DNA of 4,529 nucleotides from a virus (IMGVR_UViG_2778261706_000026); one strand, 5' to 3'. Counted from the stretch's first letter, positions 1-4,529 are shown. The notes: generated from the sequence alone by a model not told the origin. A program made the numbers and translations.

Positions 1-1119
1 TCAAATAACCAACTTAACCCATTCCTGACCTCGAGTATCGTTATAGCGATCGGTGGTTGCCTGGACTTTATGTCCTAGTAATGTTTTTGTATCGATACCC
101 TGTGCACGGTACAGCCGTTCTGATAGAGAGCGTTGTTCATGAAATGTTGGCGGAGTTTTTCCTGCTGGTGGAATTACCCCAGCCAGATCCCGTGCTTTGG
201 CAAAGTAGTCGCTCAGGTTGTCTTTACTCATCGGCTTCGGTTGTTTCTGGTGCCGACTATGGATTAGATATGGACTTAATATTCTGTCTCGGCACCCATC
301 AATAACTTCTTTTAACGTTATCCCAATGGCATCACAGCGTAGTGTAAGCGGTAACGCCAGACGCATTCCGGTTTTTCCCTGGGTGATATGCAAGTGTTCG
401 TTCCACACATCTGAAAAACGCATGTGGCAAATGTCATCACGGCGCTGACCAGTAACAATCGCAAGAAGCATTGCGTTACGGATAAAGTGTTTTTCAGGCG
501 TTGCATTGTAAATTTTTTGCCAGTCTTCCATGGTGAGCCTGGCTCTGGTTACTTTAGGGATCGGTTTACGGGTAGCCTCCGGAGGATTCCATCCAGGAGG
601 AACTTCCCCTGCATGCTGTGCTTCTTTATAAATATCAACCCATAATCCACGATTTACTCTCGCTGTACTGACCATGTCTTTATCCAGCCACTCATCCAGT
701 ATTAATGCAAAGTCTCTTACTTCCAGTTCTTTCAATGGGTGGTTTCCCAGACGGGAAACCAGGTATGCAGCCATTCGAGTTTTTTCTTTGTGAGTTGTAG
801 CTGCAATATCTCCATTTTTCAGTCGCGTGTCCTGTATTTTCAGATATCGATCAACCCATGCCTTTAATCTGATACCCCGACGTTTTGTTGCTGACGGACT
901 TTCATCAATTTTGCGCATGAAATATTCAGCTTCTGCTGCAGCTATTCGCTGATTGGCTGTGGAAGCGATTTTTTCTGCCTTACCTTTGTCTGTTCCGAGT
1001 CCGTGAAATTTTCCAGTCACAGGATTTTTATACTGGTAGTAAACTCTGCCAGTTCTGCGATCAAACTTTTCGTAAAGACCGGCTACGTCAGTGCTGTTTT
1101 TTCGTGGCCTCGGTGACAT
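1..1119 (-). CDS. int: Tyrosine site-specific integrase, lambda Int family (prophage integrase)
   Basis: Complete 372-aa minus-strand ORF (ATG at 1119-1117, TGA stop at 3-1). Translation carries the lambda-Int-type catalytic box (AIVTGQRRDD, TFHEQRSLSERLY, LLGHK...TDRY) and aligns by eye with lambda Int along its length. AAGGAG sits 10 nt upstream of the ATG, inside the xis coding region. The 3' end at the window edge implies attL lies just left of the window. Confidence 0.95.
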   Translation of the reverse strand: MSPRPRKNSTDVAGLYEKFDRRTGRVYYQYKNPVTGKFHGLGTDKGKAEKIASTANQRIAAAEAEYFMRKIDESPSATKRRGIRLKAWVDRYLKIQDTRLKNGDIAATTHKEKTRMAAYLVSRLGNHPLKELEVRDFALILDEWLDKDMVSTARVNRGLWVDIYKEAQHAGEVPPGWNPPEATRKPIPKVTRARLTMEDWQKIYNATPEKHFIRNAMLLAIVTGQRRDDICHMRFSDVWNEHLHITQGKTGMRLALPLTLRCDAIGITLKEVIDGCRDRILSPYLIHSRHQKQPKPMSKDNLSDYFAKARDLAGVIPPAGKTPPTFHEQRSLSERLYRAQGIDTKTLLGHKVQATTDRYNDTRGQEWVKLVI

Positions 1120-1357
1120 GAGTTAAAATCTCCTTCAGTGCATCATCATCGCCAGTATGAATTTCCGGCGCAATTCCCGTTTCACCAGGCCCAACAAATA
1201 CTGCTCGGCGATCTATCAGCCAACGCCCACGAATTTTTTGTGGTCTTGGAACGATGTATCCTAGTTTTCCGTATTTCACCAGGGTAGTGTTTGTTATTGG
1301 GAGACTGAACCGTTTTGGTTTCCACTCGTCGAGCGTTATCAGGTACTGTTCGCTCAT
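1088..1357 (-). CDS. xis: Excisionase (lambda Xis-like)
   Basis: Minus-strand ORF immediately upstream of int, overlapping its start by 32 nt. N-terminus MSEQYLITLDEW resembles the lambda Xis YLTLQEW motif, and the later PRPQKIRGRWLIDRRAV resembles lambda PPPVKDGREYLFHESAV. ATG at 1357 is preceded by GGAG about 9 nt upstream; the ORF-track start at 1366 is a GTG three codons further up. Confidence 0.85.
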   Translation of the reverse strand: MSEQYLITLDEWKPKRFSLPITNTTLVKYGKLGYIVPRPQKIRGRWLIDRRAVFVGPGETGIAPEIHTGDDDALKEILTHVTEATKKQH

Positions 1358-1375
1358 GGCTATCACTCCGGAACG

Positions 1376-1418: not shown

Positions 1419-1856
1419 TTAAAAATCAGCCTGACTCGGGATCAGTTTTTGCCAGATAACTGAAACGTATTTTGCCTGGTAACGGGCGTCATCAAGTGCA
1501 TTATGGCGCTCACCTTCGAATGGAATAGCCGTTCTGGCATCGAAGTCTATGGCTTTCCCCAGCTCAACGATTGTGCGTACATCGCGATCGTTGTAGTAAC
1601 GCCACGGGCAGGGGATCCCCTGCCGTTCGTATGAACGGCGCAAAATCGTGTTGTCGAAGTTGGCTCCATTTCCCCAGACCTGAACAAAAAATTCACCGGA
1701 GTTTTCGTCGATAAATTCCCGCAATTGTAACAGTGCATCATCTAACGGGATTTCATCGGTCATAATGGCAGATTGCGCTTCGCGTGATTGCTTAAGCCAC
1801 CATTTAATGGTGTCCCTCGCCGTGTGCTTTCGTGTTGTGTGCCTGCTTTTTACCAC
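1419..1856 (-). CDS. DnaQ/DEDDh-like 3'-5' exonuclease, apparently N-terminally truncated (possible pseudogene)
   Basis: Translation contains an Exo II-like motif (FFVQVWGNGANFD) and an Exo III-like motif (HNALDDARYQAKY), but no N-terminal Exo I (DxE) motif. The first in-frame start is a GTG and the first 13 codons (MVKSRHTTRKHTA) look non-homologous. The frame is closed by TAA at 1902-1904 on the minus strand. The internal ATG at 1763 has no Shine-Dalgarno. Confidence 0.55.
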   Translation of the reverse strand: MVKSRHTTRKHTARDTIKWWLKQSREAQSAIMTDEIPLDDALLQLREFIDENSGEFFVQVWGNGANFDNTILRRSYERQGIPCPWRYYNDRDVRTIVELGKAIDFDARTAIPFEGERHNALDDARYQAKYVSVIWQKLIPSQADF

Positions 1857-1880
1857 GTCAGGCGAGGTGGTCCCCGTTAT

Positions 1881-1926
1881 TCCCCAACAACAAGGATCTT
1901 GTTAATCTGGATATCCCCAACAACAA
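1881..1926 (+). repeat. Perfect 13-bp direct repeat TCCCCAACAACAA (1881-1893 and 1914-1926)
   Basis: Read directly from sequence. The second copy lies inside the left inverted repeat of the cassette; the first lies 5 bp upstream of the flanking TTGTTAA direct repeat. Confidence 0.7.
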
Positions 1927-1929
1927 TAA
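1906..1929 (+). repeat. Left terminal inverted repeat of cassette (11 bp perfect, about 24 bp imperfect)
   Basis: TCTGGATATCC at 1906-1916 is the exact reverse complement of 2471-2481; contains the 8-bp palindrome GGATATCC. Confidence 0.6.
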
Positions 1930-1940
1930 GAGTATTGAAT

Positions 1941-2456
1941 GTGATCGCTGAATTAACGGCAGCAATGACGGCTATTCGTGAAACCGCCCAGATTGCAAAA
2001 CTAATGAACGAGGCAAAAACTCAAGCTGAAGTAAATGCGGCTATTGGTGAACTGAACTCAAAGCTTGCATCTATTCAGCGCGAATGCGTGTCTCTCGTTG
2101 AGCTGGTGGGCACTTATCAAGAAATAAATGCTTCTCTCAAAGCTAAAATTGCAGAATTTGAAAACTTTGAGGCTCAGACGGAAGGTTATATCCTTAGCCA
2201 ACTTGAGTCGGGAACTTTTGTGTACTCGAAGGAGGTAACCGTGAACGGCGGCAGCATAATCATGCATCTTTGTCCAAAATGTTTTGGACAAAAGATAGTA
2301 TCGATACTTCAGCCATTCCCGGTTAGAGAATATGAATTTTTTCATAAAAGCAGGTGCCTGTACTGTGAAAATCAGTTTCTTATGAATAAAAATCCGGATT
2401 ACGTATCACCTCCATCTATTGAAGAGTTGGCCAGAAAACTGAACGGCAATCTGTAG
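1941..2456 (+). CDS. Hypothetical protein: predicted N-terminal helical/coiled-coil region plus C-terminal four-cysteine zinc-ribbon-like motif (CPKC-x24-CLYC); cargo of the TIR-bounded cassette
   Basis: Long plus-strand ORF ending TAG at 2454-2456, opposite in orientation to all neighbouring prophage genes. Start is uncertain: GTG 1941 (AAGAG about 8 nt upstream), ATG 1965 or ATG 2004. The ORF-track N-terminal extension from 1788 is R/P-rich, overlaps the exonuclease remnant and the left repeat, and is rejected. The protein has only one Asp and no DDE or HUH motif, so it is unlikely to be a transposase. Confidence 0.6.
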   Translation: MIAELTAAMTAIRETAQIAKLMNEAKTQAEVNAAIGELNSKLASIQRECVSLVELVGTYQEINASLKAKIAEFENFEAQTEGYILSQLESGTFVYSKEVTVNGGSIIMHLCPKCFGQKIVSILQPFPVREYEFFHKSRCLYCENQFLMNKNPDYVSPPSIEELARKLNGNL

Positions 2457-2457
2457 A

Positions 2458-2481
2458 TTTTTACTGTTATGGATATCCAGA
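2458..2481 (-). repeat. Right terminal inverted repeat of cassette
   Basis: GGATATCCAGA at 2471-2481 is the reverse complement of 1906-1916; the imperfect inner extension begins 2 bp after the cargo ORF stop codon (2454-2456). Confidence 0.6.
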
Positions 2482-2570
2482 TTGTTAAAGAGCATGCCGG
2501 ATGCTTGCTTGTGTCCGGCGCGTGTGCACCACTCTCCCCCCGTGGAGGATTCCTTAATTACCAGATTTCA

Positions 2571-2901: not shown

Positions 2902-2930
2902 ACTATAGGAAATGCCTAATTGCTTGTCAA
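2902..2930 (-). promoter_or_regulatory. Near-consensus sigma70 promoter, leftward (PL-like): -35 TTGACA, 17-nt spacer, -10 TATAGT
   Basis: Minus-strand reading TTGACAagcaattaggcatttccTATAGT (rc of 2902-2930). The spacer contains an ATTAGGC operator half-site (plus-strand GCCTAAT at 2914-2920). Oriented toward the ydaG-like gene. Confidence 0.55.
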
Positions 2931-3038: not shown

Positions 3039-3515
3039 TTAAGTTCCTGTCTTGGTGATGTTCTGGCTTTTCCGTTTTGATTCTTGATTTTTCAGATAGT
3101 TAGCTACCTTCATTTCCATTGCGGCAATGTAGGCACGAACGTCATGATCAACCCAACTAGGCTCCGTAGCATTTCCAGATAAGAGGAAAGCCACAATTGC
3201 TCTTTTTTCATCAGAGGCGGCTTGATAAAGGCTGTTTATGTCTAAAAGTTCACTTTTTGTATCTGAAGTGGATGGGGTTGGTATGGGGTATTCGTTAAGC
3301 CCCCAATGCTCTGGACCAACCACATCAGAAAAGAAACGCCATAGTTCTGGAAGTTTGTCTTTACTTATCGAACCTTTCTTAATCCAGTCATGGATTGATG
3401 GTGGTTGGACTTTGAAATGACGTGCGATTTCCGCCTTTGATTTGACGGCTCCTGATGCAATTTTTTTGTTAATGGCCTGCTCTATCGCTCGGCCTAAGTC
3501 TTTACCACTAAGCAT
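3039..3515 (-). CDS. racR: HTH-type prophage repressor, RacR-like (158 aa)
   Basis: Complete minus-strand ORF with an N-terminal helix-turn-helix (KAEIARHFKVQPPSIHDWIKKGSI). Divergent from a Cro/YdaS-like gene across an operator-rich intergenic region. Length and context match RacR of the Rac prophage as I recall it. No obvious S24 peptidase/autocleavage domain. SD GGAGA about 9 nt upstream of ATG at 3515. Confidence 0.85.
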   Translation of the reverse strand: MLSGKDLGRAIEQAINKKIASGAVKSKAEIARHFKVQPPSIHDWIKKGSISKDKLPELWRFFSDVVGPEHWGLNEYPIPTPSTSDTKSELLDINSLYQAASDEKRAIVAFLLSGNATEPSWVDHDVRAYIAAMEMKVANYLKNQESKRKSQNITKTGT

Positions 3516-3544
3516 TGCTTAATAGTCTCCTATGCGCATCGCAT

Positions 3545-3557
3545 TAGGCAATGCCTA
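3545..3557. promoter_or_regulatory. Operator palindrome 1: TAGGC-aat-GCCTA
   Basis: Perfect 5-3-5 palindrome read directly; the closest of the three to the racR-like start. Confidence 0.55.
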
Positions 3558-3569
3558 CTCTCGAAGTGT

Positions 3570-3582
3570 TAGGCATAGCCTA
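3570..3582. promoter_or_regulatory. Operator palindrome 2: TAGGC-ata-GCCTA
   Basis: Perfect 5-3-5 palindrome; centre 25 bp from operator 1; abuts the -35 of the rightward promoter. Confidence 0.55.
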
Positions 3583-3612
3583 TTGACAATTGCATTAGGC
3601 TAAGCCTAATAT
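3583..3612 (+). promoter_or_regulatory. Near-consensus sigma70 promoter, rightward (PR-like): -35 TTGACA (3583-3588), 18-nt spacer, -10 TAATAT (3607-3612)
   Basis: Read directly. The predicted transcript start is about 20 nt upstream of the GGAG SD (3628-3631) and the ATG at 3640. The spacer shares the gcaATTAGGC element with the PL-like promoter. Confidence 0.6.
3596..3608. promoter_or_regulatory. Operator palindrome 3: TAGGC-taa-GCCTA (extends to the 17-bp palindrome ATTAGGCtaaGCCTAAT, 3594-3610)
   Basis: Perfect palindrome; centre 26 bp from operator 2; overlaps the spacer and -10 of the rightward promoter. Confidence 0.6.

Positions 3613-3779: not shown

Positions 3780-4529
<750 letters not shown>

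Follow-up and report, generated by a model that had tools for sequence, protein, structure and literature searches.

The description of Rip1 is due to Patel, McCarthy, Taylor et al. (Nature 651:1060, 2026). According to three sources that cite or report this work, a review and a meeting report among them (PMC13434031, PMC12908700, PMC13601566), it is a single prophage-encoded protein that is harmless alone, and its homologues are widespread in proteobacterial prophages. Two of them (PMC13434031, PMC12908700) state that small terminase or portal rings template a Rip1 ring, leading to a membrane pore and to an aborted infection. In these sources, 12 Rip1 proteins encircle an 11-mer small-terminase ring via their C-terminal halves, and the pore is lined by the N-terminal amphipathic helices. 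The complexes make liposomes leak dye and perforate cells, with premature lysis of infected cells as the outcome.

We analyzed a stretch of 4529 bases (the window) in E. coli O157:H7, where a lambdoid prophage of the Rac type is inserted beside potC; the window is the left arm of this prophage. Its plus strand carries an ORF at 1941-2456, and we consider it likely that this gene encodes a diverged Rip1-family protein, a one-protein abortive-infection defence, in a Rac-like O157:H7 prophage. Family membership is supported by sequence, fold, architecture and genomic slot, and the functional steps would be those of the published family.

The prophage setting and the open reading frame

As far as base 3780, the window shared 99.9% identity with strain TR01, and its main features were as follows.

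1-1119, minus strand: integrase
1088-1366, minus strand: excisionase
1419-1856, minus strand: Rv2179c-like 3'-5' exonuclease gene, 5'-truncated
1941-2456, plus strand: rip1-like ORF, GTG start, TAG stop, 171 aa
2571-2801, minus strand: ydaF-like DUF1391 gene
2902-2930, minus strand: strong leftward sigma-70 promoter, TTGACA-17-TATAGT, consensus match 11/12
3039-3515, minus strand: racR
3640 onward, plus strand: ydaS-like cro gene, interrupted at 3780 by an element of the IS3 family

The prophage that carries the ORF has decayed: its exonuclease gene is truncated, and an IS sits within the cro-like gene. The IS3-family element occupies 3781-4529, with an rve/HTH_21 transposase OrfB at 3822-4520 on the minus strand; the ydaS-like cro gene is uninterrupted in TR01, where the identity ends at 3780. 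The exonuclease ORF covers only the C-terminal Rv2179c-like domain of far longer phage exonucleases and is a pseudogene in RefSeq. The DUF1391 ORF is readable as 76 aa, of which RefSeq calls only the last 50 codons, and its Pfam match spans residues 28-75. In addition, the heptamer GCCTAAT occurred 5 times in the window against 0.5 expected, clustering at 2902-2945, over the leftward sigma-70 promoter, and at 3543-3610, in the racR/ydaS intergenic region. These clusters are probably the RacR operators OL and OR, and the promoter at 2902-2930 is probably the early-left promoter under RacR control; a transcript from it would cross the rip1-like gene in antisense.

The ORF itself is real as originally predicted; RefSeq calls an identical one, WP_000559928.1, labelled 'hypothetical protein', and the gene layout confirmed it as the sole plus-strand gene between the int-xis-exo block and racR. 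The mechanical ORF reaches back to a TTG at 1788, and an ATG at 1965 would yield the 163-aa alternative given earlier. The GTG at 1941 is supported as the start because 20 of the 22 homologues share the MIAEL... start position and a weak Shine-Dalgarno sequence, AAGAG, lies ahead of it at 1928-1932. Among 5426 complete E. coli genomes, 681 carried the gene, with the ORF intact (coverage of at least 80%) in 647. Compared to the allele of phage PhiR49_1 (93.6% identical), dN/dS was 0.14, and the ORF is under purifying selection.

Some of the compositional claims stood only in part. The protein is indeed poor in Asp, with 1 Asp against 19 Glu in 171 residues, but this is a quirk of the allele and not a family trait, because relatives carry 6-9 Asp. 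The ORF is weakly AT-rich compared to the window (41.9% against 46.8% GC), but not in comparison with racR (42.6%) or int (45.3%), and its GC3 of 0.395 is not below that of either gene. Horizontal acquisition, which had been argued from composition, thus loses that argument, as GC and GC3 are no different from racR or int. Instead, the nucleotide alignments show that the gene was acquired as a cassette, because homology begins abruptly at 1833 and breaks off just as sharply at 2493.

We also observed a perfect 11+11 nt palindrome, TTTGTCCAAAA-TG-TTTTGGACAAA, at 2269-2292, over the coding sequence of the first CPKC zinc knuckle. It is probably a by-product of codons, since codon 111, in the left arm, differs synonymously in the PhiR49_1 allele. 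A consensus scan detected neither a plus-strand promoter nor a terminator near the rip1-like gene.

Relationship to Rip1

The protein had been described as having a helical N-terminal half and a C4 zinc-ribbon C-terminal half, and both were borne out by the AlphaFold model and by the invariant cysteines. The motif is exact (C111-P-K-C114, x24, C139-L-Y-C142), and all 22 homologues, at 27-94% identity, keep its four Cys. With the family alignment, the model reached a mean pLDDT of 86.8, with helices at 3-23 and 28-79 and then beta strands over 84-148. The sequence is not predicted to contain a membrane segment: its Kyte-Doolittle mean over 19 residues peaks at 1.13. The parts of the protein map to the window as follows.

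1941-2177, plus strand: N-terminal helical half, residues 1-79, putative pore-forming part by homology to Rip1
2190-2390, plus strand: C-terminal beta/zinc-ribbon domain, residues 84-150, putative phage-ring sensor by homology
2271-2273, 2280-2282, 2355-2357 and 2364-2366, plus strand: Cys codons

A profile built from the 22 homologues matched PDB 9OOX chain L among solved structures (E = 9e-24, residues 5-152 against 15-160). This chain is 'ring interacting pore 1 (Rip1)', and the entry, released 4 February 2026, is a cryo-EM structure of Rip1 of Escherichia phage HK446 with the small terminase of Enterobacteria phage T6. Single-sequence phmmer gave E = 3.6e-7 against 9OOX, and BLASTP against HK446_037 gave 27% identity over 150 aa (E = 5e-13). 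Using the AlphaFold model, Foldseek retrieved 9oox_L and 9oox_M with a probability of 1.00, 27-28% identity and target-normalised TM-scores of 0.54-0.68; beyond 9OOX it returned nothing significant, the next match having E = 0.17. The fold search, which had been suggested as a check, therefore left 9OOX Rip1 as the sole significant match.

The family is large. PHROGs assigned the protein to phrog_1244 (E = 1e-57), where the function is given as unknown, and a family profile search retrieved 3381 cluster representatives at E <= 1e-3, nearly all of 145-180 aa. Relatives by tblastn included HK620 (hkaP), HK629/630 and HK446, as well as the Pseudomonas Mu-like phages DMS3, JBD30, D3112 and MP38, and the CxxC...CxxC pattern is conserved among the window protein, HK446 Rip1, HK620 HkaP and DMS3 gp25. 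Pfam, NCBIfam and PADLOC 2023 hold no model for the family and gave sub-threshold coiled-coil noise only. More specifically, we obtained no match of the protein to PF14163 (SieB) at E <= 0.1, to DUF4145 or HEPN in Pfam/PADLOC, or to the C4-type zinc-ribbon/DUF164 profile (CT398/HP0958 type), and no RAZR chain was among its sequence and fold matches.

Three other proteins were set aside as identities: the 83-aa Tab of JBD26, which has its locus in common with the Pseudomonas homologues, is unrelated and does not occur in DMS3; TerI of Listeria is a small Listeria protein; and GiPD474 of Gifsy-1 carries an ATPase domain.

Taken together, the gene displays full-length sequence similarity to Rip1, the 9OOX fold, helices with CxxC...CxxC and the position of an opposite-strand prophage moron. 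The proposal of a defence candidate gains from full-length homology and a fold match to an experimentally characterised protein, from which the function would be carried over. The words 'unrecognised' and 'novel' no longer apply: the family is named, its structure has been solved since February 2026 (9OOX), and HK620 hkaP was annotated as a putative superinfection exclusion protein already in 2001. By sequence comparison, what is new is one more member of a known family, at about 27% identity, not a new kind of defence. The contrast with membrane-acting SieB that the missing membrane segments had implied also falls away, given that Rip1 has no transmembrane segment and kills via a membrane pore, according to PMC13434031.

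Conservation within the protein was uneven. The N-terminal half is the best-conserved part of the family (major-residue frequency 0.67-0.72), and the zinc-ribbon part is more variable (0.56). Between the window allele (1941-2456) and the PhiR49_1 allele (L004 4450-4965), 9 of the 10 amino-acid differences fall in residues 86-164. Since synonymous changes are likewise commoner in the C-terminal half (13 against 5), this excess is at most suggestive of sensor diversification; the variable zinc ribbon and the distribution of allele differences would fit a specificity-determining sensor and are no proof of one. In a low-power test of N-terminal amphipathicity, the maximum hydrophobic moment was 0.44 (residues 8-25) compared to 0.40 +/- 0.07 in shuffles. 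As HK446 Rip1 itself scored no better than shuffled sequence, this test is uninformative and not negative.

A sieB-type promoter cassette and its cargo

The elements flanking the ORF were located by comparison with other phages.

1833-1940, plus strand: promoter/leader cassette of the P_sieB type, 108 nt upstream of the rip1-like ORF
1841-1870, no strand assigned: interleaved helices S1 and S2, from column-wise pairing in leaders
1881-1893, plus strand: first copy of the C-rich repeat, TCCCCAACAACAA, which by P22 homology overlaps the -35 region
1903-1908, plus strand: predicted -10 hexamer TAATCT, aligning with the annotated P22 sieB -10, TAAACT
1914-1926, plus strand: C-rich repeat, copy 2, at the predicted mRNA 5' end and followed by the weak AAGAG at 1928-1932
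2457-2493, plus strand: 3' flank of the mobile cassette, where PhiR49_1 homology ends at 2493

Homology to PhiR49_1 is confined to 1833-2493, with the leader about 90% identical to the region upstream of its allele, and K-12 Rac homology resumes at 2590, in the ydaF-like gene; therefore, the mobile unit that carries the gene is a cassette of 661 bp. Across loci of Citrobacter, Enterobacter, Symbiopectobacterium and Edwardsiella, the leader kept about 80% nucleotide identity while the proteins were 43-60% identical, and on these alignments the 108-nt leader is more conserved across genera than the protein. The same leader architecture is common to Rac sieB, HK446 rip1 and HK620 hkaP. The HK446 leader matched lambda and P22 at 87%, in a region that the P22 RefSeq entry annotates with a 'sieB promoter' and a 'sieB RNA start site'.

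The 13-nt sequence TCCCCAACAACAA forms an exact direct repeat with 33-nt spacing and is conserved in all type I leaders. It is replaced by CCCCTACAG in the leaders of P22, lambda, Rac and HK446, and likewise in the HK620 hkaP repeats. A TAnnnT occupied the -10 position of every leader variant (TAAAAT, TATAAT, TAACAT, TAATAT and others). Judged by consensus, both hexamers (-10 and -35) are weak, and the TAATCT of the window scored below the threshold of the consensus scan. From homology to P22, transcription is predicted to start at about 1913-1915, just ahead of the second repeat; the 5' UTR would then be some 26 nt long, and its Shine-Dalgarno sequence is weak. The fold of this predicted 5' UTR was no better than shuffles (z = 0.61), and Rfam at E <= 1 had no match in the window.

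Upstream of the promoter, the leaders contain two paired helices. In S1, GCCTG (1841-1845) pairs with CAGGC (1859-1863), and in S2, CCAC (1853-1856) pairs with GTGG (1867-1870), in a pseudoknot-like arrangement. By column-wise pair counting in 118 distinct leaders among the matches listed, S1 was paired in 96.3% and S2 in 97.9%, and 0 of 500 shuffles reached the observed pairing; a window-based 'best helix' statistic did not separate the leader helices from shuffles. A few compensatory changes were seen (UA->GC, AU->GC, CG->UA), and variants of the helices included GCCCGG/CCGGGC (Rac), GCCGGG/CCCGGC, CCUCA/UGAGG and CGGG/CCCG. A third hairpin (1871-1897) encloses the first repeat, with arms wholly different between the two leader types. 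In many other phages, some leftward gene begins just 12-20 nt from S1, and the mechanical GTG start (1856) of the exonuclease ORF falls inside the conserved promoter cassette.

As for the strand on which the helices act, G-U against A-C pairs and folding energies were ambiguous, the upstream helices of the window folding at -18.6 kcal/mol on the minus strand against -10.3 on the plus strand. A P22-like start site places S1 and S2 outside the cargo mRNA; in that case they would either form part of the early transcript that runs leftward or exert their effect as DNA. Ranade and Poteete reportedly found in 1993 that P22 escapes its own SieB via an internal product, Esc, and an antisense RNA, sas, and an antisense role related to sas is possible for the conserved helix block. 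A more extended reading, which we regard as rather unlikely, is that the sieB promoter region combines a cargo-swapping cassette with a sas-like antisense or processing module that silences the installed defence in the lytic cycle. The ~60 nt upstream with S1, S2 and the repeat-1 hairpin could then be transcribed antisense from the early-left promoter during lytic growth. If this were true, related phages might silence each other's defences, and the remaining cargo families would be undescribed defence genes.

The slot had been called sieB-equivalent, and this proved accurate: in K-12 Rac, sieB on the plus strand abuts ydaF/DUF1391 on the minus strand, exactly as the rip1-like gene does here. 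In HK446 and HK620, the interval from kil/cIII to N holds rip1 and hkaP, respectively, each on the opposite strand. The PhiR49_1 copy (93.6% identical) adjoins an unrelated cI repressor, and the Citrobacter and Edwardsiella copies lie between xis, exo or recET-type genes and the repressor or N. DMS3 gene 25 (L002 3968-4495) is flanked by genes 24 and 26 and is read from the opposite strand. The neighbourhood check that had been proposed thus placed the relatives in opposite-strand prophage moron sites (HK446, HK620, PhiR49_1, Citrobacter, Edwardsiella, DMS3). The Pseudomonas terminase-gene locus is where Rip1 and Tab are described, and the DMS3 gene 24/26 slot is a second cargo-swapping hotspot because JBD26 has the unrelated Tab there. 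In Edwardsiella prophages (L010/L012 4962-6279), we also noted two plus-strand ORFs of 228 and 175 aa between the rip1-like gene and N. No Pfam match is on record for them, and from their position they may be part of a small island of accessory genes that are expressed in the lysogen.

In IMG/VR, two pattern scans for repeat pairs gave at least 240 loci (L026-L265), a sample biased by the search patterns and by the number of matches listed. From the matches listed, we took 214 leaders and 189 complete downstream ORFs, with the following cargo among the matches listed.

rip1-like: 95/189
SieB (PF14163 / phrog_1301): 74/189
phrog_5286-type, 98-151 aa, function unknown: 9/189
80-aa family: 2/189
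Pro/Lys-rich peptides, 30-39 aa: 9/189

The phrog_5286 proteins have 148-151 aa and a related protein 98 aa, and a SieB cargo from the same cassette type scored 3.8e-21 against PF14163. As differing cargo stands behind one promoter cassette, 'sieB-equivalent position' is literally true, and from these sequences the leader at 1833-1940 looks like a cargo-swapping hotspot.

Competing explanations and proposed mode of action

The promoter cassette in common with sieB of P22, lambda and Rac, and the SieB cargo in 74 of the 189 complete IMG/VR ORFs among the matches listed, leave some room for a superinfection-exclusion or Abi protein that works by a mechanism other than a ring-templated pore, for example a functional analogue of SieB sharing only the expression slot. 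At 27% identity, the function could have drifted. Nevertheless, we judge this improbable: homology to Rip1 is full-length and joined by the fold match, the zinc-ribbon cysteines and the helical half are kept as in Rip1, and the protein has neither a PF14163 match nor a transmembrane segment. Less probable still is a cytoplasmic regulator or chaperone with a coiled coil and a zinc ribbon, like CT398/HP0958 or DksA, that would modulate gene expression in the lysogen. The regulatory option of the original prediction has only an architectural resemblance to coiled-coil and Zn-ribbon proteins in its favour.

The state of the prophage bears on a further explanation, in which the gene would be a decaying, non-functional passenger of a defective element. 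The truncated exonuclease gene, the IS in the cro-like gene of the window and the weak promoter hexamers count in its favour. However, the ORF is intact in 647 genomes at a coverage of at least 80%, its dN/dS is 0.14 and its promoter region is conserved across genera, and we give the passenger hypothesis very little credence.

For the preferred assignment to the Rip1 family, we propose the following course, in which the trigger and the expression in the O157:H7 strain are inferred from the published family. In the lysogen, the rip1-like gene would be transcribed alone from the sieB-type promoter (-10 at 1903-1908, start near 1914), in the direction opposed to the early-left operon, which is repressed, and the protein would build up in a soluble and harmless form. 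When a second phage reached the late stage and made ring oligomers (small terminase, portal), the C-terminal beta/zinc-ribbon domain would grip the outside of the phage ring, which would thereby template a ring of the Rip1-like protein, on the pattern of the HK446/T6 structure with its 12 Rip1 around an 11-mer terminase. The gathered N-terminal helices could then form a pore in the inner membrane, permeabilising the cell ahead of finished progeny and protecting neighbouring lysogens.

With this assignment, a 'hypothetical protein' present in about 1/8 of complete E. coli genomes, with most O157:H7 strains sampled among the carriers, acquires a functional name and a mechanism that can be tested. 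A resident Rip1-like defence could shape which phages multiply in EHEC, including Stx and therapeutic phages. As a distant Rip1 relative with a differently evolved sensor domain, the gene is useful for decoding ring recognition and specificity, and the sieB-type promoter cassette offers a sequence handle to harvest lysogen-expressed defence candidates from lambdoid prophages.

Comparison with known systems

HK446 Rip1 (HK446_037, AFH20665.1) is, like the protein described here, a single protein of ~165-170 aa with a helical N-terminal half followed by a beta/C4 zinc-ribbon half. Its gene is also on the opposite strand, in the interval from the early-left genes to N or the repressor, with a sieB-type promoter region ahead. 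The two proteins are ~27% identical, and the window protein adds a C-terminal tail of ~20 residues; its leader has the CCCCAACAAC repeat variant, whereas the HK446 rip1 leader has CCCCTACAG. HkaP of HK620/HK629/HK630 occupies the same slot with 29% identity to the window protein and matches 9OOX at E = 2e-10. Its 2001 annotation as a putative superinfection exclusion protein was positional only.

The homologues in Pseudomonas Casadabanvirus (DMS3 gp25, JBD30, D3112 orf25, MP38 ORF25) have ~30% tblastn identity to the window protein. DMS3-25 matches 9OOX at E = 1e-19 and belongs to the same family, and the Pseudomonas genes are likewise opposite-strand, prophage-expressed morons. For a Pseudomonas Rip1 homologue, PMC13434031 places the escapers in the portal and not in the small terminase. 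Tab (tail assembly blocker) of JBD26 is, as these homologues are, an opposite-strand prophage moron at the same terminase-gene locus. However, it is unrelated to the window protein, has 83 residues and blocks tail assembly; DMS3, which carries a Rip1 homologue, is Tab-sensitive.

SieB of P22, lambda and Rac (PF14163) has the slot, the orientation and the promoter cassette in common with the gene of the window, but it is an unrelated protein with transmembrane segments and a PF14163 match, neither of which the window protein has. The biology of SieB, reportedly set out by Ranade and Poteete in 1993, is that of an abortive exclusion that is expressed in the lysogen and takes effect late in infection.

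RAZR, a companion system (PD-T7-4; Zhang et al., Nature 2026, PMC13017515), offers a parallel in the recognition of phage rings. Its Cys4 zinc ribbon binds the circumference of a phage ring, with portal and an Erf-like recombinase as triggers and an active ring of the defence protein templated on them, and its zinc finger is its most variable part and sets specificity (PMC13017515). The zinc-ribbon part is similarly variable in the family described here. Unlike Rip1, RAZR has a HEPN RNase (DUF4145) effector, forms no pore and carries its zinc finger at the N-terminus.
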